Below, one piece after another: positions 38,138-49,352 of a stretch of DNA of 64,000 nucleotides. Origin of the DNA: Escherichia coli (GTDB lineage: Bacteria; Pseudomonadota; Gammaproteobacteria; Enterobacterales; Enterobacteriaceae); NCBI RefSeq assembly GCF_003018255.1, contig NZ_CP027440.1; one strand, given 5' to 3'. The number at the start of each line of letters is the position of its first letter. Within the stretch, counting starts at the first letter, position 1. The notes beneath the pieces are model-generated. The model was not told the origin of the DNA and did no database searches. It saw only the letters and a program-made list of their open reading frames with translations. The translations under genes were made by a program, and so were the position numbers.

Positions 38138-40567
38138 GTGTCGTCGTTGCCCGTTGCTGCCGTCTTACCTGAGTTACTTGCTGCTCTCGATTGTGCATCG
38201 CAGGTGTTATTAAGTGCGCCGACCGGGGCCGGGAAATCAACCTGGCTGCCGCTGCAACTGCTGGCGCATCCCGGCATTAACGGGAAAATTATCCTGCTGG
38301 AGCCGCGTCGTCTGGCGGCGCGTAACGTTGCGCAACGACTGGCGGAGCTGCTTAACGAAAAGCCAGGCGATACCGTTGGCTACCGGATGCGTGCGCAAAA
38401 CTGCGTCGGGCCGAATACCCGCCTGGAAGTGGTTACCGAAGGCGTGCTGACGCGGATGATCCAGCGTGACCCGGAACTGAGCGGTGTTGGATTGGTGATC
38501 CTTGATGAATTTCATGAGCGCAGCTTGCAGGCGGATTTGGCGTTGGCGCTGTTACTCGATGTGCAACAAGGTCTGCGTGATGACCTTAAACTGCTGATTA
38601 TGTCGGCTACGCTGGACAACGACCGCTTGCAGCAAATGCTGCCAGAAGCGCCCGTCGTCATCTCAGAAGGGCGCTCGTTTCCGGTTGAACGCCGTTATTT
38701 GCCGCTGCCCGCTCATCAGCGTTTTGACGAAGCCGTCGCGGTTGCCACCGCCGAAATGCTGCGTCAGGAAAGTGGATCATTACTGTTATTTTTACCTGGC
38801 GTCGGAGAAATTCAGCGTGTGCAGGAACAACTGGCTTCACGCATCGGCAGTGATGTGTTGCTCTGCCCGCTGTATGGCGCGTTGTCGCTGAACGATCAGC
38901 GAAAAGCGATCCTCCCGGCACCGCAAGGGATACGTAAAGTGGTGCTGGCGACCAATATTGCTGAAACCAGTTTAACCATCGAAGGTATTCGTCTGGTGGT
39001 GGATTGTGCCCAGGAGCGTGTGGCGCATTTTGATCCGCGTACAGGGCTTACGCGGCTGGTTACTCAACGCGTTAGTCAGGCGTCGATGACGCAACGTGCC
39101 GGGCGTGCCGGGCGTCTGGAGCCGGGTATCTGCCTGCATTTAATCGCCAAAGAACAAGCAGAACGCGCTGCCGCGCAAAGTGAACCGGAGATCTTACAAA
39201 GCGATCTTTCCGGTTTGCTGATGGAATTACTGCAATGGGGATGCAGCGATACGGCGCAGATGAGCTGGCTGGATCAACCGCCAACGGTGAATCTACAGGC
39301 CGCGAAACGGCTGTTACAAATGCTGGGGGCGCTGGAGGGTGAACGGCTTAGCGCACAAGGGCAAAAAATGGCAGTGCTGGGTAGCGATCCGCGTTTAGCG
39401 GCAATGCTGGTTAGCGCGAAGAACGACGACGAAGCTGCTACCGCGGCAAAAATTGCCGCCATTCTCGAAGAGCCGCCACGGATGGGCAATAGTGACCTGG
39501 GCGTGGCGTTTTCGCGCAATCAACCCGCCTGGCAGCAACGTAGTCAGCAACTGTTAAAACGCTTAAACGTACGCGGCGGTGAGGCAGACAGTTCGCTTAT
39601 CGCGCCGCTACTTGCCGGGGCGTATGCCGATCGCATTGCTTGTCGCCGTGGGCAAGATGGACGCTATCAACTGGCAAACGGCATGGGGGCGATGCTCGAT
39701 GCCGACGATGCGCTAAGCCGCTACGAATGGTTGATCGCACCGTTATTATTGCAGGGCAGCGCCTCGCCGGATGCGCGGATTTTACTGGCGCTACCGGTCG
39801 ATATCGATGAATTAGTACAACGCTGTCCGCAGCTGGTACAGCAGTCGGACACCGTGGAATGGGATGACGCGCAAGGCACGCTGAAAGCCTGGCGTCGGCT
39901 GCAAATCGGTCAGTTGACGGTGAAAGTGCAGCCACTGGCGAAACCCTCGGAAGACGAGTTGCATCAGGCGATGCTTAACGGCATCCGTGATAAAGGTTTA
40001 AGCGTGCTCAACTGGACGGCGGAAGCGGAACAGCTACGCTTGCGTTTGTTATTCGCCGCAAAGTGGTTGCCGGAATATGACTGGCCAGCGGTTGATGATG
40101 AGAGTTTGTTGGCGACGCTGGAAACGTGGCTACTGCCGCATATGAGCGGCGTGCATTCACTACGCGGCCTGAAATCACTCGACATTTATCAGGCGCTACG
40201 CGGATTACTTGATTGGGGAATGCAGCAACGTCTGGATAGTGAATTGCCTGCGCATTACACTGTGCCGACGGGAAGCCGGATCGCCATTCGTTATCATGAA
40301 GATAAACCGCCCGCGCTGGCGGTGAGAATGCAGGAGATGTTTGGTGAGGCCACCAATCCGACGATCGCCCAGGGGCGCGTGCCGCTGGTGCTGGAGTTGC
40401 TTTCCCCTGCCCAAAGGCCATTACAAATCACACGAGATTTGAGCGCCTTCTGGAAAGGAGCGTACCGTGAGGTGCAAAAAGAGATGAAAGGGCGTTATCC
40501 CAAACATGTCTGGCCGGACGACCCGGCAAATACTGCACCGACGCGACGGACGAAAAAGTATTCGTGA
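38138..40567 (+). CDS. hrpB: ATP-dependent RNA helicase HrpB (DEAH-box)
   Basis: from GTG 38138: (M)SSLPVAAVLPELLAALDCASQVLLSAPTGAGKSTWLP...; DEFH box ILDEFHERS. Confidence 0.9.
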   Translation: MSSLPVAAVLPELLAALDCASQVLLSAPTGAGKSTWLPLQLLAHPGINGKIILLEPRRLAARNVAQRLAELLNEKPGDTVGYRMRAQNCVGPNTRLEVVTEGVLTRMIQRDPELSGVGLVILDEFHERSLQADLALALLLDVQQGLRDDLKLLIMSATLDNDRLQQMLPEAPVVISEGRSFPVERRYLPLPAHQRFDEAVAVATAEMLRQESGSLLLFLPGVGEIQRVQEQLASRIGSDVLLCPLYGALSLNDQRKAILPAPQGIRKVVLATNIAETSLTIEGIRLVVDCAQERVAHFDPRTGLTRLVTQRVSQASMTQRAGRAGRLEPGICLHLIAKEQAERAAAQSEPEILQSDLSGLLMELLQWGCSDTAQMSWLDQPPTVNLQAAKRLLQMLGALEGERLSAQGQKMAVLGSDPRLAAMLVSAKNDDEAATAAKIAAILEEPPRMGNSDLGVAFSRNQPAWQQRSQQLLKRLNVRGGEADSSLIAPLLAGAYADRIACRRGQDGRYQLANGMGAMLDADDALSRYEWLIAPLLLQGSASPDARILLALPVDIDELVQRCPQLVQQSDTVEWDDAQGTLKAWRRLQIGQLTVKVQPLAKPSEDELHQAMLNGIRDKGLSVLNWTAEAEQLRLRLLFAAKWLPEYDWPAVDDESLLATLETWLLPHMSGVHSLRGLKSLDIYQALRGLLDWGMQQRLDSELPAHYTVPTGSRIAIRYHEDKPPALAVRMQEMFGEATNPTIAQGRVPLVLELLSPAQRPLQITRDLSAFWKGAYREVQKEMKGRYPKHVWPDDPANTAPTRRTKKYS

Positions 40568-40660
40568 AGACCAAAGCAAATTTGAGAGATATCTTCTTCT
40601 GTCTTGCAACAGAAGAACAGAAAATCGGGCTTTTGCGCCTGAATATTGCGGAGAAAAAGC

Positions 40661-43192
40661 ATGGCCGGGAATGACCGCGAGCCAATTGGACGCAAAGGGA
40701 AACCGACGCGTCCGGTCAAACAAAAGGTAAGCCGTCGTCGTTACGAAGATGACGATTACGACGATTATGATGACTATGAGGATGAAGAACCGATGCCGCG
40801 CAAAGGTAAGGGCAAAGGCAAAGGGCGTAAGCCTCGTGGCAAACGCGGCTGGCTATGGCTGCTGCTAAAACTGGCTATCGTTTTTGCCGTGCTGATCGCC
40901 ATTTACGGCGTTTATCTCGATCAAAAAATTCGCAGCCGTATTGATGGCAAGGTCTGGCAATTGCCCGCGGCAGTTTATGGCCGAATGGTCAACCTTGAGC
41001 CAGACATGACCATCAGCAAGAACGAAATGGTGAAGCTGCTGGAGGCGACCCAGTATCGTCAGGTGTCGAAAATGACCCGTCCTGGCGAATTTACCGTGCA
41101 GGCCAACAGCATTGAGATGATCCGCCGTCCGTTTGATTTCCCGGACAGTAAAGAAGGGCAGGTGCGTGCGCGTCTGACCTTTGATGGCGATCATCTGGCG
41201 ACGATCGTCAATATGGAGAACAACCGTCAGTTTGGTTTCTTCCGTCTTGATCCGCGCCTGATCACCATGATCTCCTCGCCAAACGGTGAGCAGCGTTTGT
41301 TTGTGCCGCGCAGTGGTTTCCCGGATTTGCTGGTGGATACTTTGCTGGCGACAGAAGACCGCCATTTCTACGAGCATGATGGGATCAGTCTCTACTCCAT
41401 CGGACGTGCGGTGCTGGCAAACCTGACCGCCGGACGCACGGTGCAGGGTGCGAGTACGCTGACGCAACAGCTGGTGAAAAACCTGTTCCTCTCCAGCGAG
41501 CGCTCTTACTGGCGTAAAGCGAACGAAGCTTACATGGCGCTGATCATGGACGCGCGTTACAGCAAAGACCGTATTCTTGAGCTGTATATGAACGAGGTGT
41601 ATCTCGGTCAGAGCGGCGACAACGAAATCCGCGGCTTCCCGCTGGCGAGCTTGTATTACTTTGGTCGCCCAGTAGAAGAATTGAGCCTCGACCAGCAGGC
41701 GCTGTTGGTGGGTATGGTGAAAGGGGCGTCCATCTACAATCCGTGGCGTAACCCGAAACTGGCGTTGGAGCGACGTAATCTGGTACTGCGTCTGCTGCAA
41801 CAGCAACAGATTATTGATCAAGAACTCTATGACATGTTGAGTGCACGTCCGCTGGGGGTTCAGCCGCGCGGTGGGGTGATCTCTCCACAGCCAGCCTTTA
41901 TGCAACTGGTGCGTCAGGAGCTGCAGGCAAAACTGGGCGATAAGGTAAAAGATCTCTCCGGCGTGAAGATCTTCACTACCTTTGACTCGGTGGCCCAGGA
42001 CGCGGCAGAAAAAGCCGCCGTGGAAGGCATTCCGGCACTGAAGAAACAGCGTAAGTTGAGCGATCTTGAAACCGCGATTGTGGTCGTCGACCGCTTTAGT
42101 GGTGAAGTTCGTGCGATGGTTGGAGGTTCTGAGCCGCAGTTTGCGGGCTACAACCGTGCGATGCAGGCGCGTCGTTCGATTGGTTCCCTTGCAAAACCAG
42201 CGACTTATCTGACGGCCTTAAGCCAGCCGAAAATCTATCGCCTGAACACGTGGATTGCGGATGCGCCAATCGCGCTACGTCAGCCGAATGGCCAGGTCTG
42301 GTCACCGCAGAACGATGACCGTCGTTATAGCGAAAGCGGCAGAGTGATGCTGGTAGATGCGTTGACCCGTTCGATGAACGTGCCGACGGTGAATCTGGGC
42401 ATGGCGTTGGGGCTGCCTGCGGTTACGGAGACCTGGATTAAACTGGGTGTGCCGAAAGATCAACTGAATCCAGTTCCAGCAATGTTGTTGGGGGCGTTGA
42501 ACTTAACGCCAATCGAAGTGGCGCAGGCGTTCCAGACCATCGCCAGCGGTGGTAACCGTGCTCCGCTTTCTGCACTGCGTTCGGTAATCGCGGAAGATGG
42601 CAAGGTGCTGTATCAGAGCTTCCCGCAGGCGGAACGCGCTGTTCCGGCGCAGGCGGCGTATCTGACACTATGGACCATGCAGCAGGTGGTACAACGTGGT
42701 ACGGGGCGTCAGCTTGGGGCGAAATACCCGAACCTGCATCTGGCAGGGAAAACAGGGACTACCAACAATAACGTAGATACCTGGTTTGCGGGCATTGACG
42801 GCAGTACGGTGACCATCACCTGGGTAGGCCGTGATAACAACCAACCGACCAAATTGTATGGAGCCAGCGGGGCAATGTCGATTTATCAGCGTTATCTGGC
42901 TAACCAGACGCCAACACCGCTGAATCTTGTTCCGCCAGAAGATATTGCAGATATGGGCGTGGACTATGACGGCAACTTTGTTTGCAGCGGTGGCATGCGT
43001 GTCTTGCCGGTCTGGACCAGCGATCCGCAATCGCTGTGCCAGCAGAGTGAGATGCAGCAGCAGCCGTCAGGCAATCCGTTTGATCAGTCTTCTCAGCCGC
43101 AGCAACAGCCGCAACAGCAACCTGCTCAGCAAGAGCAGAAAGACAGCGACGGTGTAGCCGGTTGGATCAAGGATATGTTTGGTAGTAATTAA
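40661..43192 (+). CDS. mrcB: penicillin-binding protein 1B (bifunctional glycosyltransferase/transpeptidase)
   Basis: [43 protein letters not shown]...; acidic N-terminal tract, Q/P-rich C-terminus. Confidence 0.95.
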
Positions 43193-43208
43193 CGTCTAAG
43201 CGTGACAT

Positions 43209-43240
43209 ACCGGATGGCGAGTAGCCATCCGGTAAAATAA
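43209..43240 (+). terminator. hairpin ACCGGATGGC-GAGTA-GCCATCCGGT downstream of mrcB
   Basis: perfect 10-bp stem; followed by AAAATAA rather than a T-run, so strength uncertain. Confidence 0.45.
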
Positions 43241-43349
43241 CATCCCACCCAAAGTATTAACCCTTTCTTTTCATCTGGTTGTTTATTAACCCTTCAGGAA
43301 CGCTCAGATTGCGTACCGCTTGCGAACCCGCCAGCGTTTCGAATATTAT

Positions 43350-43392
43350 CTTATCTTTATAATAATCATTCTCGTTTACGTTATCATTCACT
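43350..43392 (+). promoter_or_regulatory. Fur box-like sequence in fhuA promoter region
   Basis: TTTATAATAATCATTCTC and GTTATCATTCAC resemble the GATAATGATAATCATTATC Fur consensus, 20-60 bp upstream of fhuA ATG. Confidence 0.55.
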
Positions 43393-43411
43393 TTATATCA
43401 GAGATATACCA

Positions 43412-45601
43412 ATGGCGCGTTCCAAAACTGCTCAGCCAAAACACTCACTGCGTAAAATCGCAGTTGTAGTAGCCACAGCGGTTAGCGGCATGTCTGTTTA
43501 TGCACAGGCAGCGGTTGAACCGAAAGAAGACACTATCACCGTTACCGCTGCACCTGCGCCGCAAGAAAGCGCATGGGGACCGGCTGCAACTATTGCGGCG
43601 AAGCACTCTGCTACTGCGACTAAAACGGATACACCAATTGAAAAAACGCCGCAGTCTATTTCGGTTGTGACAAATGAAGAGATGCAGATGCATCAATTTC
43701 AGTCTGTAAAAGAAGCATTAGGTTATACACCTGGCGTTACGGTTAGCAGTCGTGGTGCTTCTAATACATATGATTTTGTTATTATTCGTGGTTTCTCATC
43801 TGTTGGTCTGAATCAAAATAATTACCTTGATGGACTAAAACTTCAGGGCAACTTTTATAACGATGCTGTGATTGATCCTTACATGCTCGAGAGGGTTGAA
43901 CTGATGCGCGGGCCGACGTCTGTTCTCTATGGGAAAAGTAATCCTGGTGGGATTATTTCTATGGTGAGTAAGCGTCCGACAACTGAACCCCTGAAAGAAA
44001 TTCAGTTTAAAATGGGGACGGATAATCTGTTTCAGACCGGATTCGATTTCAGTGATGCGCTGGATGATAACGGTGAGTTCTCCTACCGTTTGACTGGCCT
44101 CGCACGCTCAACAAACGAACAGCAGAAAAACTCTGAATCTCAGCGTTATACCATTGCTCCATCATTCTCATGGCGTCCAGACGACAAAACCAATTTTACT
44201 TTCCTGTCCTATTTTCAGAACGAACCAGAAACGGGTTATTACGGTTGGTTGCCGAAAGAGGGGACCGTTGAGCCATTGCCTAATGGTAAGCGTCTACCGA
44301 CTGACTTCAATGAAGGTGCATCGAATAATACATACTCCCGTAACCAGAAAATGGTGGGATATAGTTTTGAACATGGTTTTAATGACACCTTCACCGTGCG
44401 TCAGAATCTGCGTTTCAGTGAAATGAAAACCTCACAGAAAAGTGTTTATGGCACAGGGATTGCCAGCGATGGTCATACCCTAAACCGCGGGACAGTGGTG
44501 GATAATGAGCGTCTGCAAAACTTTAGCGTTGATACCCAACTTGAAAGTAAATTTGCTACAGGTGAAGTCGAGCATACTTTGCTGACAGGGGTAGACTTCA
44601 TGCGTATGCGCAATGATATCAATGCCAGCTTTGGATCTGCACCATCCATCGATCTTTATAACAAATATCATCCTGAATACTTTGCATTTGGTAACGCAGA
44701 GCCATACCAAATGAATGAAAGCAAACAAACAGGTATTTATGTTCAGGATCAGGCGGAATGGAATAAATGGGTATTCACTCTGGGGGGACGCTACGATTGG
44801 TCTAAGCAAGCGACCACTGTTCGTGAAAACTCTTATACGCCGACTGAAGGTTATATTGAGCGTAATGATCATCAGTTCACCTGGCGCGGTGGTGTAAACT
44901 ACTTATTCGATAATGGTATTTCACCTTACTTTAGTTATAGCCAGTCCTTTGAACCGAGTGCTTTCGATCTGTGGAGCAACCCGCGCGTTTCCTATAAGCC
45001 ATCGAAAGGTGAACAGTATGAAGCTGGCGTAAAATATGTTCCGAATGATATGCCGGTCGTTGTTACGGGCGCAGTCTATCAATTGACGAAAACAAATAAC
45101 CTGACAGCAGACCCAACAAACCCGTTAGCGCAAGTCCCAGCAGGTGAGATTCGCGCTCGTGGTGTGGAACTTGAAGCAAAAGCGGCGTTAAATGCCAATA
45201 TTAACTTGACGGCTTCTTATACCTACACAGATGCGGAATACACCAAAGACACCAATCTCAAAGGTAAAACTCCAGAACAAGTACCGGAGCATATGGCATC
45301 TCTCTGGGGGGATTATACCTTCAATGAAGGGCCGCTTTCTGGTTTAACATTGGGAACAGGTGGTCGTTTTATTGGTTCCAGCTATGGTGATCCGGCGAAC
45401 ACTTTTAAAGTGGGTAGCGCAGCTGTAATGGATGCTGTTGTAAAATATGATCTGGCACGCTTTGGTATGGCGGGATCCAGCCTTGCTGTGAACGTCAACA
45501 ATTTGCTCGATCGTGAGTATGTTGCCAGTTGCTTCCAGACCTATGGCTGCTTCTGGGGCGCAGAACGTCAGGTCGTTGCAACCGCAACCTTCCGTTTCTA
45601 A
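43412..45601 (+). CDS. fhuA: ferrichrome outer-membrane TonB-dependent transporter, divergent (mosaic) allele
   Basis: 729-aa ORF; signal peptide, TonB box DTITVTA, plug and 22-strand barrel, C-terminal ...ATATFRF; central part differs strongly from the K-12 protein as I recall it. Confidence 0.93.
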   Translation: MARSKTAQPKHSLRKIAVVVATAVSGMSVYAQAAVEPKEDTITVTAAPAPQESAWGPAATIAAKHSATATKTDTPIEKTPQSISVVTNEEMQMHQFQSVKEALGYTPGVTVSSRGASNTYDFVIIRGFSSVGLNQNNYLDGLKLQGNFYNDAVIDPYMLERVELMRGPTSVLYGKSNPGGIISMVSKRPTTEPLKEIQFKMGTDNLFQTGFDFSDALDDNGEFSYRLTGLARSTNEQQKNSESQRYTIAPSFSWRPDDKTNFTFLSYFQNEPETGYYGWLPKEGTVEPLPNGKRLPTDFNEGASNNTYSRNQKMVGYSFEHGFNDTFTVRQNLRFSEMKTSQKSVYGTGIASDGHTLNRGTVVDNERLQNFSVDTQLESKFATGEVEHTLLTGVDFMRMRNDINASFGSAPSIDLYNKYHPEYFAFGNAEPYQMNESKQTGIYVQDQAEWNKWVFTLGGRYDWSKQATTVRENSYTPTEGYIERNDHQFTWRGGVNYLFDNGISPYFSYSQSFEPSAFDLWSNPRVSYKPSKGEQYEAGVKYVPNDMPVVVTGAVYQLTKTNNLTADPTNPLAQVPAGEIRARGVELEAKAALNANINLTASYTYTDAEYTKDTNLKGKTPEQVPEHMASLWGDYTFNEGPLSGLTLGTGGRFIGSSYGDPANTFKVGSAAVMDAVVKYDLARFGMAGSSLAVNVNNLLDREYVASCFQTYGCFWGAERQVVATATFRF

Positions 45602-45651
45602 TTTTTTCTTTGGGGCACGGATTTCCGTGCCCGCTTCACAAGTTGGCTGTT

Positions 45652-46449
45652 ATGCAGGAATACACGAATCATTCCGATACCACTTTTGCACTGCGTAATA
45701 TCTCCTTTCGTGTGCCAGGGCGCACGCTTTTGCATCCGCTGTCGTTAACCTTTCCTGCCGGGAAAGTGACTGGTTTGATTGGTCACAACGGTTCTGGTAA
45801 ATCCACTCTGCTCAAAATGCTTGGCCGTCATCAGCCACCGTCGGAAGGCGAAATTCTTCTTGATGCCCAGCCGCTGGAAAGCTGGAGCAGCAAAGCGTTC
45901 GCCCGCAAAGTGGCTTATTTGCCGCAGCAGCTTCCTCCGGCAGAAGGGATGACCGTGCGTGAACTGGTGGCGATTGGTCGTTACCCGTGGCATGGCGCAC
46001 TGGGGCGCTTTGGTGCGGCAGATCGCGAAAAGGTCGAAGAGGCGATTTCGCTGGTTGGCTTAAAACCGCTGGCGCATCGGCTGGTCGATAGTCTCTCTGG
46101 CGGCGAACGTCAGCGGGCGTGGATCGCTATGCTGGTGGCGCAGGATAGCCGTTGTCTGTTGCTCGACGAACCGACCTCGGCGCTGGATATCGCCCACCAG
46201 GTTGATGTGCTGGCGCTGGTGCATCGTTTAAGTCAGGAACGTGGTCTGACGGTCATTGCCGTGCTGCACGATATTAATATGGCTGCGCGCTACTGTGATT
46301 ATCTGGTCGCCCTGCGCGGTGGTGAAATGATTGCTCAGGGAACGCCTGCGGAAATTATGCGCGGCGAAACCCTCGAAATGATTTATGGCATCCCGATGGG
46401 TATTCTGCCGCATCCGGCGGGTGCTGCACCTGTGAGTTTTGTTTATTGA
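45652..46449 (+). CDS. fhuC: ferric hydroxamate ABC transporter ATP-binding protein
   Basis: MQEYTNHSDTTFALRNISFRVPGRTLLHPLSLTF...; Walker A GHNGSGKST. Confidence 0.95.
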   Translation: MQEYTNHSDTTFALRNISFRVPGRTLLHPLSLTFPAGKVTGLIGHNGSGKSTLLKMLGRHQPPSEGEILLDAQPLESWSSKAFARKVAYLPQQLPPAEGMTVRELVAIGRYPWHGALGRFGAADREKVEEAISLVGLKPLAHRLVDSLSGGERQRAWIAMLVAQDSRCLLLDEPTSALDIAHQVDVLALVHRLSQERGLTVIAVLHDINMAARYCDYLVALRGGEMIAQGTPAEIMRGETLEMIYGIPMGILPHPAGAAPVSFVY

Positions 46450-47339
46450 TGAGCGGCTTACCTCTTATTTCGCGCCGCCGACTGTTAACGGCGATGGCGC
46501 TTTCTCCGTTGTTATGGCAGATGAATACCGCCCACGCGGCGATTATTGATCCCAATCGTATTGTGGCGCTGGAGTGGTTGCCGGTGGAATTACTGCTGGC
46601 GCTCGGCATCGTGCCTTACGGCGTGGCGGACACCATCAACTATCGCCTGTGGGTCAGCGAACCGCCATTGCCGGACTCAGTGATTGACGTTGGTTTGCGT
46701 ACAGAACCCAACCTTGAACTGCTGACCGAAATGAAACCGTCGTTTATGATCTGGTCGGCAGGATATGGCCCTTCACCAGAAATGCTGGCACGTATTGCGC
46801 CGGGGCGCGGATTTAACTTCAGCGACGGCAAACAGCCGCTGGCGATGGCGCGTAAATCACTGACGGAAATGGCAGATTTACTTAACCTGCAAAGCGCAGC
46901 AGAAACGCATTTAGCGCAATATGAAGACTTTATCCGCAGCATGAAACCCCGCTTTGTGAAGCGTGGTGCACGCCCGTTATTGCTGACGACGCTTATCGAT
47001 CCGCGCCATATGTTGGTCTTCGGTCCAAACAGCTTGTTCCAGGAAATTCTTGATGAGTACGGCATCCCAAATGCCTGGCAAGGGGAAACCAACTTCTGGG
47101 GCAGTACCGCCGTCAGTATCGATCGTCTGGCGGCGTATAAAGACGTTGATGTGCTCTGTTTTGATCACGACAACAGCAAAGACATGGATGCGCTAATGGC
47201 AACCCCGCTGTGGCAGGCCATGCCGTTTGTCCGTGCAGGACGTTTTCAGCGCGTTCCGGCGGTCTGGTTCTATGGCGCGACGCTTTCGGCAATGCACTTT
47301 GTGCGTATTCTGGATAACGCCATCGGAGGTAAAGCGTGA
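46449..47339 (+). CDS. fhuD: ferric hydroxamate periplasmic binding protein
   Basis: MSGLPLISRRRLLTAMALSPLLWQMNTAHA... ; ATG overlaps fhuC stop. Confidence 0.93.
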   Translation: MSGLPLISRRRLLTAMALSPLLWQMNTAHAAIIDPNRIVALEWLPVELLLALGIVPYGVADTINYRLWVSEPPLPDSVIDVGLRTEPNLELLTEMKPSFMIWSAGYGPSPEMLARIAPGRGFNFSDGKQPLAMARKSLTEMADLLNLQSAAETHLAQYEDFIRSMKPRFVKRGARPLLLTTLIDPRHMLVFGPNSLFQEILDEYGIPNAWQGETNFWGSTAVSIDRLAAYKDVDVLCFDHDNSKDMDALMATPLWQAMPFVRAGRFQRVPAVWFYGATLSAMHFVRILDNAIGGKA

Positions 47340-49318
47340 GTAAACGAATTGCGCTTTTTCCGGCGTTATTGCTGGCGCTGCTGGTGATTGTCGCTACGGC
47401 GCTCACCTGGATGAACTTCTCGCAGGCGTTGCCGCGCAGCCAGTGGGCGCAGGCCGCCTGGTCGCCGGATATTGACGTCATCGAGCAGATGATTTTTCAC
47501 TACAGCTTGTTGCCGCGTCTGGCGATTTCGCTGCTGGTGGGCGCGGGCCTGGGGCTGGTGGGCGTGCTGTTTCAGCAAGTGCTGCGTAACCCGCTGGCGG
47601 AACCGACGACGTTGGGCGTTGCAACAGGCGCGCAACTGGGGATTACCGTCACTACGCTCTGGGCGATCCCAGGTGCTATGGCGAGCCAGTTTGCTGCGCT
47701 GGCAGGGGCTTGCGTTGTTGGCTTAATTGTCTTTGGCGTCGCGTGGGGGAAACGGCTGTCGCCGGTAACGCTGATCCTCGCGGGGCTGGTAGTGAGCCTT
47801 TATTGTGGGGCAATCAATCAGTTACTGGTTATCTTCCATCACGACCAGCTACAAAGCATGTTCCTGTGGAGCACCGGAACGCTGACGCAAACCGACTGGG
47901 GCGGCGTTGAGCGTTTATGGCCGCAGCTGCTGGGCGGCGTGATGCTGACGTTATTGCTACTTCGCCCGTTAACCCTGATGGGGCTTGATGATGGCGTGGC
48001 GCGCAATCTCGGTCTGGCCTTGTCGCTGGCGCGTCTGGCGGCGCTGTCGCTGGCGATAGTCATCAGTGCGCTGCTGGTGAATGCAGTGGGGATTATCGGC
48101 TTTATCGGGTTGTTCGCGCCGCTGCTGGCAAAAATGCTGGGGGCGCGGCGTCTGCTGCCACGGTTAATGCTGGCGTCGCTGATTGGTGCGTTAATTCTGT
48201 GGCTTTCTGATCAAATCATCCTCTGGCTGACTCGCGTGTGGATGGAAGTTTCCACCGGTTCGGTCACTGCGTTGATCGGTGCGCCGCTGCTACTGTGGCT
48301 GCTGCCGCGTTTACGCAGCATTAGCGCGCCGGATATGAAGGTCAACGATCGTGTCGCGGCTGAACGCCAACATGTGCTGGCGTTTGCCCTCGCGGGCGGC
48401 GTGCTGCTGTTGATGGCTGTGGTAGTGGCGCTGTCGTTTGGTCGTGATGCGCACGGCTGGACGTGGGCGAGCGGGGCGTTGCTCGAGGATTTAATGCCCT
48501 GGCGCTGGCCGCGAATTATGGCGGCGCTGTTTGCGGGCGTCATGCTGGCGGTGGCGGGCTGTATTATTCAGCGGCTGACCGGAAACCCGATGGCAAGCCC
48601 GGAAGTGCTGGGGATTAGCTCCGGCGCGGCGTTTGGCGTGGTGTTGATGCTGTTTCTGGTGCCGGGTAATGCCTTTGGCTGGCTGTTACCTGCAGGCAGT
48701 CTCGGCGCGGCGGTGACGCTGTTGATCATTATGATCGCCGCCGGACGCGGTGGATTTTCCCCACACCGCATGTTACTGGCGGGGATGGCGTTAAGTACCG
48801 CGTTCACCATGCTTTTGATGATGTTGCAGGCAAGTGGTGACCCGCGAATGGCGCAAGTGCTGACCTGGATCTCCGGTTCGACCTACAACGCGACCGATGC
48901 GCAGGTCTGGCGCACGGGAATTGTGATGGTAATTTTGCTGGCGATTAACCCGCTGTGCCGCCGCTGGCTGACCATTTTACCGCTGGGCGGTGATACCGCA
49001 CGAGCCGTAGGAATGGCGCTGACGCCGACGCGAATTGCGCTGCTGCTATTAGCGGCTTGCCTGACGGCGACCGCGACGATGACTATTGGACCGTTGAGTT
49101 TTGTTGGTTTAATGGCACCGCATATTGCGCGGATGATGGGTTTTCGACGGACGATGCCACACATCGTAATTTCGGCGCTGGTGGGTGGTTTACTGCTGGT
49201 GTTCGCTGACTGGTGTGGGCGGATGGTATTGTTTCCATTCCAGATCCCGGCGGGGCTGCTGTCAACCTTTATCGGCGCGCCATATTTTATCTATTTGTTG
49301 AGAAAGCAGAGCCGTTAA
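47336..49318 (+). CDS. fhuB: ferric hydroxamate ABC transporter permease (fused duplicated permease)
   Basis: 660-aa polytopic ORF from GTG 47336 overlapping fhuD stop. Confidence 0.95.
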   Translation: MSKRIALFPALLLALLVIVATALTWMNFSQALPRSQWAQAAWSPDIDVIEQMIFHYSLLPRLAISLLVGAGLGLVGVLFQQVLRNPLAEPTTLGVATGAQLGITVTTLWAIPGAMASQFAALAGACVVGLIVFGVAWGKRLSPVTLILAGLVVSLYCGAINQLLVIFHHDQLQSMFLWSTGTLTQTDWGGVERLWPQLLGGVMLTLLLLRPLTLMGLDDGVARNLGLALSLARLAALSLAIVISALLVNAVGIIGFIGLFAPLLAKMLGARRLLPRLMLASLIGALILWLSDQIILWLTRVWMEVSTGSVTALIGAPLLLWLLPRLRSISAPDMKVNDRVAAERQHVLAFALAGGVLLLMAVVVALSFGRDAHGWTWASGALLEDLMPWRWPRIMAALFAGVMLAVAGCIIQRLTGNPMASPEVLGISSGAAFGVVLMLFLVPGNAFGWLLPAGSLGAAVTLLIIMIAAGRGGFSPHRMLLAGMALSTAFTMLLMMLQASGDPRMAQVLTWISGSTYNATDAQVWRTGIVMVILLAINPLCRRWLTILPLGGDTARAVGMALTPTRIALLLLAACLTATATMTIGPLSFVGLMAPHIARMMGFRRTMPHIVISALVGGLLLVFADWCGRMVLFPFQIPAGLLSTFIGAPYFIYLLRKQSR

Positions 49319-49324
49319 TAGAAT

Positions 49325-49345
49325 GCCTCGCCCGGTGGGCGAGGC
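49325..49345. terminator. hairpin GCCTCGCCC-GGT-GGGCGAGGC between convergent fhuB and hemL
   Basis: perfect 9-bp GC-rich stem between the two stop codons. Confidence 0.55.
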
Positions 49346-49352
49346 AAAATCA

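Follow-up and report, generated by a model that had tools for sequence, protein, structure and literature searches.

Class E3 fhuA in Escherichia coli, a standing allele class with a deeply diverged central block between E. coli-typical gene ends

We analyzed a window of 64,000 nucleotides from Escherichia coli (contig NZ_CP027440.1 of NCBI RefSeq assembly GCF_003018255.1), focusing on fhuA, which lies downstream of mrcB and heads the fhuACDB operon. Phages of the T1, T5, and phi80 types enter through FhuA, as do colicin M, microcin J25, albomycin, and a rifamycin derivative. The fhuA gene in the window is intact, is correctly annotated, and belongs to an already described class, the FhuA cluster E3 defined by Wang, Chen, Zhu, White, and Koster in 2018 (bioRxiv 10.1101/320069). 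The features of the locus are the following.

40661 to 43192, plus strand: mrcB, the upstream flank; 97.3% nucleotide identity and a dS of 0.12 to K-12, which is normal E. coli divergence.
43193 to 43411, plus strand: mrcB-fhuA intergenic region (promoter side); E. coli-typical and outside the replaced block.
43412 to 45601, plus strand: fhuA coding sequence, an open reading frame of 729 amino acids, class E3; the annotated fhuA of NZ_AP025214.2 is 100% identical.
43412 to 43578, plus strand: shared E. coli 5' end of fhuA, 167 nt, matching K-12 at every position (100%), synonymous sites included; it comprises the signal peptide (residues 1 to 33) and the first ~22 mature residues, among them the TonB box DTITV, and contains the left crossover interval.
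43579 to 45541, plus strand: E3 block, with the remaining plug, the entire barrel, and all surface loops; its right flank is the shared 3' end.
44450 to 44491, plus strand: truncated loop L4 (GTGIASDGHTLNRG), 17 amino acids shorter than in K-12 and lacking the Cys318-Cys329 pair; Indel 3 of Wang et al.
44654 to 44701, plus strand: tip of loop L5, with a 7-amino-acid deletion relative to K-12 and 38% identity; Indel 4 (coordinates from coarse topology).
44822 to 44848, plus strand: tip of loop L6, with a 5-residue insertion (PTEGY region) and 29% identity; Indel 5 of Wang et al.
44954 to 45001, plus strand: tip of loop L7, with 2 extra residues and 21% identity; Indel 6 of Wang et al.
45110 to 45130, plus strand: tip of loop L8, of the same length as in K-12, with 2 of 7 residues identical.
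45542 to 45601, plus strand: shared E. coli 3' end of fhuA, the last 19 codons and the stop codon, holding the right crossover interval.
45652 to 49318, plus strand: fhuC, fhuD, and fhuB, the downstream operon genes; 96.4 to 97.0% nucleotide identity and a dS of 0.12 to 0.15 to K-12, again normal divergence.

The product scored 1411.3 bits against the NCBIfam FhuA equivalog NF007465 (cut-off, 803), with residues 1 to 729 aligned to positions 1 to 726 of the 726-position profile. It also matched TIGR01783 (TonB-dependent receptor) with 576 bits and has the architecture of a plug and a 22-strand barrel; PF07715 and PF00593 were found on a cluster representative 95% identical to the window FhuA. 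The TonB box is the same as in K-12. Residues Y277, W279, R114, and Y149 (precursor numbering) do not vary among the 45 FhuA sequences compared, which represent all classes; in mature numbering, these are Y244 and W246 in L3 and R81 and Y116 in the plug. We take R81 to be a ferrichrome-contact residue. A role in ferrichrome binding has been described for Y244 and W246 (PMC10373560), and a preprint on phage T5 places Y116 in the ferrichrome pocket. From the equivalog match, the TonB box, and these residues, we infer that ferrichrome transport is retained in E3 FhuA.

The boundaries of the divergent segment are sharp. Against a K-12-type locus (L001), the hrpB, mrcB, and fhuCDB flanks are 95 to 100% identical per 100-bp window, and the mrcB-fhuA intergenic region differs from K-12 by 7 SNPs, at 43206 to 43254 and at 43396. 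Positions 43397 to 43578 are 100% identical, mismatches are dense from 43579 to 45541, and none then follows until 45605. An earlier note, made from the sequence alone, had placed a divergent center at 43590 to 45530 and described a protein of 729 rather than 747 amino acids with K-12-matching ends. The mapped junctions fall within ~11 nt of that estimate, and both the length difference and the matching ends were confirmed, the portions of fhuA shared with K-12 being the first 55 and the last 19 codons. Within the E3 block, 28.6% of positions mismatch K-12, against 3.1% outside it (Fisher P = 5e-226), corresponding to ~70% nucleotide and ~75% amino acid identity, so that uniformly high identity to K-12 along the gene, which would have spoken against the note, is contradicted. 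The window allele and K-12 fhuA (class E1) thus have in common the gene, the operon, the signal peptide, the TonB box, the last 19 residues, and the ferrichrome-contact region of L3 but differ throughout the center.

The center is also AT-richer than its surroundings, as the note had claimed, with a GC content of 0.446 compared to 0.551 in mrcB and 0.560 in fhuC and a GC content at third codon positions (GC3) of 0.41 compared to 0.56 to 0.70 in the flanks. Given that the K-12 fhuA center is itself AT-richer than its own flanks (GC, 0.509; GC3, 0.54), this dip is only in part specific to the E3 allele. Misassembly can produce such abrupt shifts in identity and composition, but an assembly chimera or contamination does not account for the fhuA of this window: hundreds of independent complete genomes show the identical arrangement, always single copy, chromosomal, and between mrcB and fhuC.

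To be precise about frequency, 562 of the 5,426 complete E. coli genomes (10.4%) carry the E3 block. The 5', middle, and 3' thirds of the block, used separately as probes, each detected 562 genomes, with all three together and no hybrids. All 8 E3 carriers that were sampled had identical junctions, and classes E2 and E4 have the 5' anchor in common with them. E3 is internally diverse (up to ~2%), falls into several haplotype groups, and occurs in many hosts and backgrounds. The earlier note had read the mosaic as an event of this strain; it is instead a standing E. coli allele class carried by about one-tenth of the genomes. The class census of the complete genomes was ~3,667 for E1, ~1,068 for E2, 562 for E3, and 91 for E4. 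Ends that had been called K-12-like are actually typical of E. coli and common to E1, E2, E3, and E4: the 5' end has the same sequence in the E4 representative and a near-identical one in E2. In comparison, the 5' ends of E. coli and Salmonella are 87.5% identical at the nucleotide level, and those of the Salmonella clusters S1 and S2 are 98% identical to each other.

A further 81 genomes fell into an 80 to 90% identity band. Their interpretation as E3/E1 hybrids was ruled out by the equal counts of 562 for the subsegments, and they are probably members of class E4 matched over short conserved pieces. E4 was located through weak matches in the plug region; a megablast search of E. coli genomes with an Enterobacter-type fhuA, aimed at the same class, returned eight weak matches only.

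Assignment to E3 follows from both relationship and indel pattern. The window FhuA is 94.5 to 95% identical in amino acid sequence to S2 representatives, 77% identical to E1, S1, and E2, and 67% identical to E4, and its closest relative outside E. coli is the Salmonella cluster S2, as described for E3. It lacks the L4 and L5 insertions present in E1, S1, and E2 and contains the L6 and L7 insertions. In ST410, an ancestral "alternative FhuA allele" has been reported under accession number WP_000124383.1 (Feng et al. 2019, PMC6715731); this protein is the annotated fhuA product in two loci of our set (L088 and L089). The window allele is ~98 to 99% identical at the nucleotide level to the alleles encoding it and shares the indel signature, the sister relation to S2, and the locus with the E3 of Wang et al. 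and the ST410 allele, making it a haplotype within E3 with no essential difference. To the known class we add the coordinates of the junctions, its frequency among complete genomes, the finding that the block is indivisible, the silent-site dating, and a GC3 anomaly.

Loops were delimited by the order of strands and turns in an AlphaFold2 model of the window FhuA, built with an alignment of 45 sequences, and cross-checked with the loops of Wang et al. on structure 1QFF; the model has a mean pLDDT of 53 (below 50 in the plug) and was used solely as a coarse partition. Between E3 and E1, amino acid change is concentrated in the loops, as are 28 of the 32 gap positions. The note had reported that the Cys-Cys segment of L4 was replaced by a shorter one, and this is borne out by the alignment: where K-12 reads ...GVCSDPANAYSKQCAALAPADKGHYLAR..., the window reads ...GIASDGHTLNRG..., and the 17-amino-acid deletion takes out Cys318 and Cys329 (mature numbering) and with them the disulfide of the longer K-12 loop. 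The tips of L5 to L8 are 21 to 38% identical to K-12, while L3 is 97% identical. Judged from this alignment, the ferrichrome-binding regions are kept and L4 to L8, the loops that phages use, are remodeled.

For K-12 FhuA, one report indicates that T1 depends on L4 and phi80 partly so and that L8 is needed by T5, phi80, and SO1-like phages (PMC10373560). The FhuA of Salmonella enterica serovar Typhimurium, a cluster S2 protein of 729 amino acids that is 95% identical to the window FhuA without gaps, cannot import microcin J25. In another account, T1 and T5 infect strain DH10B and not strain Nissle, whose FhuA is 89% similar with 82 of 753 residues different, and a section heading states that expression of DH10B FhuA makes Nissle susceptible. 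ESBL E. coli without the L4 residues is still killed by a pb5-endolysin fusion, and loss of L4 alone therefore does not predict the loss of binding by T5 pb5. The T5 preprint reports that S. Typhimurium is insensitive to T5 and does not adsorb it; we set this aside as evidence on E3, since the FhuA of the strains used there is described as 96 to 100% identical to E. coli FhuA, which is at odds with an S2 protein. Our literature search found no experiment on E3 E. coli FhuA, and Wang et al. call the phenotypes of their own clusters unverified. On the loop comparison, altered phage and microcin susceptibility of E3 strains is likely, and a change in bacteriocin susceptibility through the replaced loops is plausible. 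Whether FhuA-targeting phages or microcins work on a strain thus plausibly depends on its fhuA class. About one-third of E. coli genomes have an fhuA class other than the K-12 class, which underlies nearly all receptor studies and to which every solved FhuA structure (1BY3, 2FCP, 1QFF, and 8A60) belongs. For the window itself the practical message is modest: it holds a common, described variant.

To place the center in time, we compared E1, E3, S1, and S2 in a four-way test. With NG86 dS saturated and hence undefined wherever E3 was compared, we used divergence at 4-fold-degenerate sites instead. Within species, the gene ends and flanks show K4 values of 0.01 to 0.16, compared to a dN of 0.18 to 0.19 and a K4 of 1.1 to 1.6 in the center. 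Between E1 and S1, the center has a dN of 0.045 and a K4 of 0.85 (flanks, K4 of 0.70 to 0.76), on a par with the flanking genes; between E3 and S2, it has a dN of 0.030, a K4 of 1.73, and a p4 of 0.68, about twice the silent divergence of the flanks. Over both comparisons the flanks have a K4 of 0.69 to 0.79. Salmonella mirrors E. coli: S1 and S2 have Salmonella ends in common, just as E1 to E4 have E. coli ends, and the same classes segregate at the syntenic site as E1/E3 in one species and S1/S2 in the other. The ends therefore group by species and the centers by class, a phylogenetic incongruence within one gene.

This incongruence bears on whether recombination is needed at all, for the ends could be constrained and the center could have diverged in place under fast positive selection on a phage receptor. 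Wang et al. cite fhuA as positively selected, amino acid change is highest in the surface loops, and between genera the silent divergence of the 5' end (K4, 0.23 to 0.34) is below that of the flanks, all of which would suit such a scenario. However, silent sites between E3 and E1 are saturated in plug, transmembrane strands, and loops alike (p4, 0.65 to 0.68) and nearly unchanged in the ends (p4, 0.03 to 0.08); positive selection does not raise synonymous divergence thirtyfold at a sharp boundary, nor would it sort ends by species and centers by class. We regard divergence without recombination as scarcely credible.

It also appears highly improbable that this strain, or strains closely related to it, recently received the center from Salmonella or some other named genus of enterics. 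The best non-E. coli protein match is indeed S. enterica FhuA of cluster S2, with 95% identity over an equal length of 729 amino acids, no gaps, near-identical surface loops, and a syntenic site between mrcB and fhuC, and the composition of the block is unlike that of its flanks. At the DNA level, however, identity between the two is only 79.6%, silent sites are saturated, and divergence exceeds that of the flanking genes; S2 has a GC3 of 0.57 rather than 0.41, and its gene ends are Salmonella specific. A search of ~100,000 GTDB species representatives for a donor gave a best non-E. coli nucleotide identity of 80.3%, with third-position identity of 0.44 to 0.51, and the spread of E3 over many backgrounds with its own internal diversity likewise speaks against a recent arrival. 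The note had proposed to look for the closest donor lineage; the nearest non-E. coli sequences are those of Salmonella S2 and Citrobacter sp. Res13, each at only ~80% DNA identity with saturated third positions, and by this comparison no donor is identifiable. Of the proposed homologous recombination with a divergent donor, the recombinational mosaic including the surface loops stands, and a donor that can be named (best match, ~80% of nucleotides) does not.

Given that divergence between species within a class is no smaller than that of the flanks, recent transfer is excluded, and both classes seem to date back to the Escherichia-Salmonella split or earlier. Calling E3 the divergent allele is a K-12-centered view, since its protein distance to Salmonella is like that of the flanking genes (dN of 0.030 versus 0.037 to 0.050). 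Lelliottia, Citrobacter, and Trabulsiella likewise each contain several deep fhuA classes at the same syntenic site. FhuA identity correlates with MrcB identity in class A (Spearman, 0.85), a result that does not discriminate because cross-class controls are equally strong (0.73 to 0.89); in class B the correlation is 0.41 (P = 0.07), with clear exceptions. Class B relatives are out of species-distance order, Phytobacter and Buttiauxella being closer to K-12 than Citrobacter is, indicating that lateral exchange between genera occurred at some times.

Taken together, it is very probable that the window holds the known class E3 fhuA as one of several old, cassette-like central versions that are moved by homologous recombination and most plausibly kept by pressure from phages, colicin M, and microcins. 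E3 FhuA would be a TonB-dependent transporter of ferrichrome that retains the plug, the barrel, and the regions in contact with ferrichrome and has a remade outer face, with L4 truncated, L5 shortened, L6 and L7 lengthened, and L8 resequenced. In E. coli, Salmonella, and other Enterobacteriaceae, fhuA would then constitute a cassette-like polymorphism, with deeply diverged centers of ~1.96 kb coexisting in a species and whole cassettes passing between strain backgrounds by homologous recombination, for which the conserved gene ends and the flanking genes serve as anchors. The classes would be old, as divergence between genera within a class equals or exceeds that of neighboring genes. We observed directly where the junctions lie, how frequent the block is in the population, which class it belongs to, how deep the divergence runs, and where the changes fall; the maintaining force is most plausibly frequency-dependent selection, in which a rarer surface variant would be spared by phages, colicin M, and microcins that had adapted to the prevalent one. 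Comparable deep allele classes, swapped between conserved flanks, discordant with the species tree, and exposed to phages and immunity, are found at other hypervariable surface-protein loci of enterobacteria, such as ompC, fliC, and the O-antigen cluster. Relative to these loci, the unit of exchange in fhuA is an internal 1.96-kb segment of one gene, with the junctions inside the coding sequence.

The low GC3 of both rare E. coli classes is the remaining puzzle. It is 0.41 in E3 and 0.38 in E4, compared to 0.53 to 0.54 in the common E. coli classes and 0.53 to 0.67 in the nearest relatives elsewhere, and the E3 value is below that of every other member of its own class (0.48 to 0.67). Together with the excess of silent divergence between E3 and S2, this means that a simple vertical history, with E3 as the E. 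coli branch of the S2 lineage, does not fit perfectly. One answer would be ancient acquisition of E3, and perhaps E4, from an unsampled, lower-GC relative of Escherichia, with later spread by recombination; GC3 values under E. coli norms and under all sampled relatives of each class, the silent excess over the flanks, and one junction pair in all E3 carriers, which fits a single founding event, are consistent with it. Still, the GTDB species representatives include no low-GC donor, and the dN to S2 is no larger than that of vertically inherited neighbors, so that the donor would have to match E. coli in its closeness to Salmonella and still differ greatly in base composition; a single pair of junctions would equally result from a sweep through the species by one recombinant haplotype of an old polymorphism. 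We consider such an acquisition unlikely.

The classes might instead be a true trans-species polymorphism that predates the Escherichia-Salmonella split and was kept by descent in both genera, with recombination homogenizing everything on either side of the center, as far in as codon 55 at the start of the gene and the last 19 codons at its end, and the low GC3 of E3 and E4 arising in place, a reading that we hold to be possible though rather doubtful. Under it, rare diverged alleles would seldom meet a recombination partner, would escape GC-biased gene conversion, and would drift to mutational equilibrium. The scientific value that remains in the locus lies in how old the classes seem to be and in the shift of the rare ones toward AT. 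If the trans-species reading is true, the fhuA locus would offer a natural experiment on the determinants of bacterial GC content.

The window between 38 and 50 kb corresponds to the hrpB-mrcB-fhuACDB-hemL segment of E. coli, in which fhuA is placed as follows:

43412-45601, + strand, fhuA, 729 aa

Using the K-12-type locus NZ_CP026344 (L001) as the reference and windows of 100 bp, we found that the genes flanking fhuA are 95 to 100% identical per window and that positions 43397-43578 are 100% identical. Mismatches and indels are densely packed over 43579-45541 (referred to as the E3 block here), and 3' of 45541 similarity is back to the ordinary E. coli level, with the first further mismatch at 45605. 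Among aligned bases, 28.6% are mismatched in the block versus 3.1% outside it (Fisher p = 5e-226). The GC content is 0.446 in the block, 0.551 in mrcB, and 0.560 in fhuC, and the third-position GC (GC3) is 0.41 in the block and 0.56-0.70 in the flanks; the center of K-12 fhuA is also somewhat AT-richer than the K-12 flanks (GC, 0.509; GC3, 0.54). Alignment, GC content, and protein comparison bear out in every particular the earlier note's observation of a mosaic, AT-richer, and shorter fhuA with a replaced loop. Elsewhere in the segment, K-12 is longer by ~100-150 bases at each of two intergenic indels, between hrpB and mrcB (window ~40562-40609) and between fhuB and hemL (~49319-49350).

Relative to K-12, protein alignment shows a 17-amino-acid deletion in surface loop L4, with loss of both cysteines, a deletion of 7 amino acids in L5, 5 inserted residues in L6, and two additional residues in L7. 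This pattern is exactly that by which Wang et al. (bioRxiv 10.1101/320069) defined classes E3/S2, that is, L4 and L5 insertions absent and L6 and L7 insertions present. These authors divided FhuA into clusters E1 to E4 in E. coli and S1 and S2 in Salmonella, found that the fhuA tree conflicts with the species and fhuCDB trees, located 6 of 6 indels and 1 of 2 substitution fragments at loop apices, and proposed recombination, leaving phenotypic effects to future tests. In addition, Feng et al. (PMC6715731) described WP_000124383.1, which annotation assigns to the E3 genes of two of our comparison loci (L088 and L089), as the allele carried by most ST410 strains; in the B4/H24RxC clone, recombination replaced it with an allele <74% identical to it in DNA. 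The window allele thus falls into fhuA class E3 of E. coli, which had been described before; the exact protein of the window allele is listed in public databases under the name E. coli FhuA (652 contigs). The 90%-identity protein cluster that holds it also has 265-aa FhuC members, which looks like a clustering artifact of adjacent genes.

A megablast of fhuA against 5,426 complete E. coli genomes yielded 562 genomes at ≥95% identity, the remainder being at ~76%. When each third of the E3 block (5', middle, and 3') served as a separate probe, it matched 562 genomes, and no E3/non-E3 hybrid was detected in this set; the block is thus inherited as one unit. All eight E3 carriers sampled across haplotype groups, hosts, and countries have the same two switch points. 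In E2 and E4, divergence from K-12 starts at the same 5' point, and the 167-nt 5' end of an E4 representative is 100% identical; the "K-12-like ends" are thus simply E. coli ends. A strain-specific replacement, as the earlier note had it, does not fit an allele that constitutes a common class:

FhuA classes in complete E. coli genomes (class-specific probes)
E1-like (K-12 type): ~3,667 genomes, ~68%
E2-like (749/752 aa): ~1,068 genomes, ~20%
E3 (window allele): 562 genomes, 10.4%
E4 (731 aa): 91 genomes, 1.7%

Diversity inside E3 is uneven, with 228 carriers at ≥99% and 334 at 95-99% identity in the 5' third (43579-44200) and 560 of 562 at ≥99% in the 3' 540 bp (45000-45541). In strain Br_112_kylling (L094:2973-4489), annotation calls the E3-type gene a pseudogene with a frameshift; it falls ~670 bp short of the intact length, and the middle probe matched it over just 18% of the probe length. 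In Ecol_AZ162 (L095:1-2781), fimbrial usher and fimbrial protein genes, not mrcB, lie directly 5' of fhuA, and in another comparison locus (L008) similarity is wholly lost ~140 bp 5' of the fhuA start (window ~43273), which suggests that an insertion point of variable content adjoins fhuA in some strains. Two small records, from strains 1217KP and 1218KP (NZ_JBTLFU010000002.1 and NZ_JBTLFV010000003.1), were counted among plasmid places; their fhuA is ~77% identical to the Enterobacter type, and contamination, or misassignment of contigs from another genus, may account for them.

Between E3 and E1, amino acid changes cluster at the sites on which surface ligands would be expected to exert selection. 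The plug has an identity of 0.79, the strands 0.76, and the loop tips 0.66; the loop coordinates are coarse, their strand order coming from a low-confidence model in agreement with the crystal-structure assignment of Wang et al. Of 32 gap positions, 28 fall within loops, and the tips of L5 to L8 are merely 21-38% identical, while L3 (97%) and L10 (93%) are conserved. Fast adaptive change of the loops alone is nevertheless ruled out, since 4-fold sites are saturated alike in the plug (divergence p4, 0.68), barrel strands (0.65), and loop tips (0.65) versus 0.03-0.08 in the shared gene ends. The comparison of four alleles, E1, E3, S1 (747 aa, 93% to K-12), and S2, points to recombination instead. 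Within species (E1-E3 and S1-S2), flanks and both gene ends are near-identical (4-fold divergence K4, 0.01-0.16) and the centers share ~75% of amino acids (dN, 0.18-0.19; K4, 1.1-1.6). Between species, the E1-S1 center (dN, 0.045; K4, 0.85) is about level with the flanks, and dN of the E3-S2 center (0.030) is equal to or below that of mrcB (0.037) and fhuC (0.050). The ends therefore group by species and the centers by class, an incongruence inside one gene that implies recombination.

The closest protein outside E. coli is a 729-aa Salmonella enterica FhuA, 95% identical without gaps, and the matches at this level include one labeled serovar Typhimurium; a genuine Salmonella locus (L003) carries an S2-type fhuA between mrcB and fhuC. 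A recent import from Salmonella is ruled out by the DNA of the centers, which is only 79.6% identical with saturated 4-fold sites (p4, 0.68; K4, 1.73), above the K4 of 0.69-0.79 (dS, ~1.0-1.3) of the flanking genes between the two species. Among ~100,000 species, each represented by one genome, no match exceeded 80.3% DNA identity. Of the earlier interpretation, recombination and the involvement of loops stand; the strain-specific replacement from a divergent donor does not. No donor lineage can be named. The four-allele distances show that neither class passed recently between Escherichia and Salmonella, and both class lineages appear to be at least as old as the split of these genera.

The fhuA polymorphism is family-wide. 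Enterobacteriaceae carry at least three deep fhuA classes at the same syntenic site, several of them within single genera: all three in Lelliottia (differing classes in loci L012, L048, and L076) and more than one each in Citrobacter and Trabulsiella, with FhuC meanwhile 88-94% identical. Two loci named Trabulsiella odontotermitis (L015 and L069), which are separate species representatives in GTDB, have different deep classes, and FhuC is >90% identical to that of E. coli in most of the Lelliottia and T. odontotermitis loci. The deep classes may be a persisting ancestral polymorphism or the product of ancient transfers; class-B relatives do not follow the order of species distance, indicating that some lateral exchange occurred.

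Besides class age, the point of remaining interest is the unusually low silent-site GC of both rare E. coli classes:

GC3 of fhuA classes and neighboring genes
E3, rare E. coli class (window 43579-45541): 0.41
E4, rare E. coli class (representative L100:3500-5468): 0.38
E1 and E2, common E. coli classes: 0.53-0.54
Closest E3/E4 relatives in other genera: 0.53-0.67
Neighboring E. coli genes: 0.56-0.70

Possibly, E3 and E4 both came from an unsampled low-GC relative; alternatively, rare, highly diverged alleles may evade GC-biased gene conversion and drift to mutational equilibrium. The low GC3 of E3 probably makes the silent distance between E3 and S2 appear larger as well.

Regarding function, the window protein matches the curated FhuA equivalog profile over its full length (1411 bits; cutoff, 803), its TonB box is the same as in K-12, and Y244 and W246, two L3 residues that contact ferrichrome, do not vary among FhuA classes, so that ferrichrome transport is likely retained. 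In K-12 FhuA, L3, L11, beta7, and beta9 bind ferrichrome, L4 is needed by T1 and partly by phi80, and L8 by T5, phi80, and SO1-like phages (PMC10373560); unlike K-12, the window allele has a truncated L4 and a resequenced L8 tip. The literature attributes microcin J25 resistance of S. Typhimurium, whose FhuA is 95% identical to that of the window, to its own FhuA, and E. coli fhuA restores sensitivity. T1 and T5 infect DH10B; strain Nissle, with an FhuA 89% similar to that of DH10B (82 of 753 residues differ), is not infected by them, and a section heading of the report on these strains states that expression of DH10B FhuA makes Nissle susceptible. By analogy with these cases and given the L4 and L8 changes, susceptibility to K-12-adapted FhuA phages and microcin J25, which the earlier note expected to change, is probably altered. 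Two points temper this expectation. All solved FhuA structures and a large 2026 receptor screen are based on the K-12 class. In ESBL E. coli without the L4 residues, a pb5-endolysin fusion was still effective.
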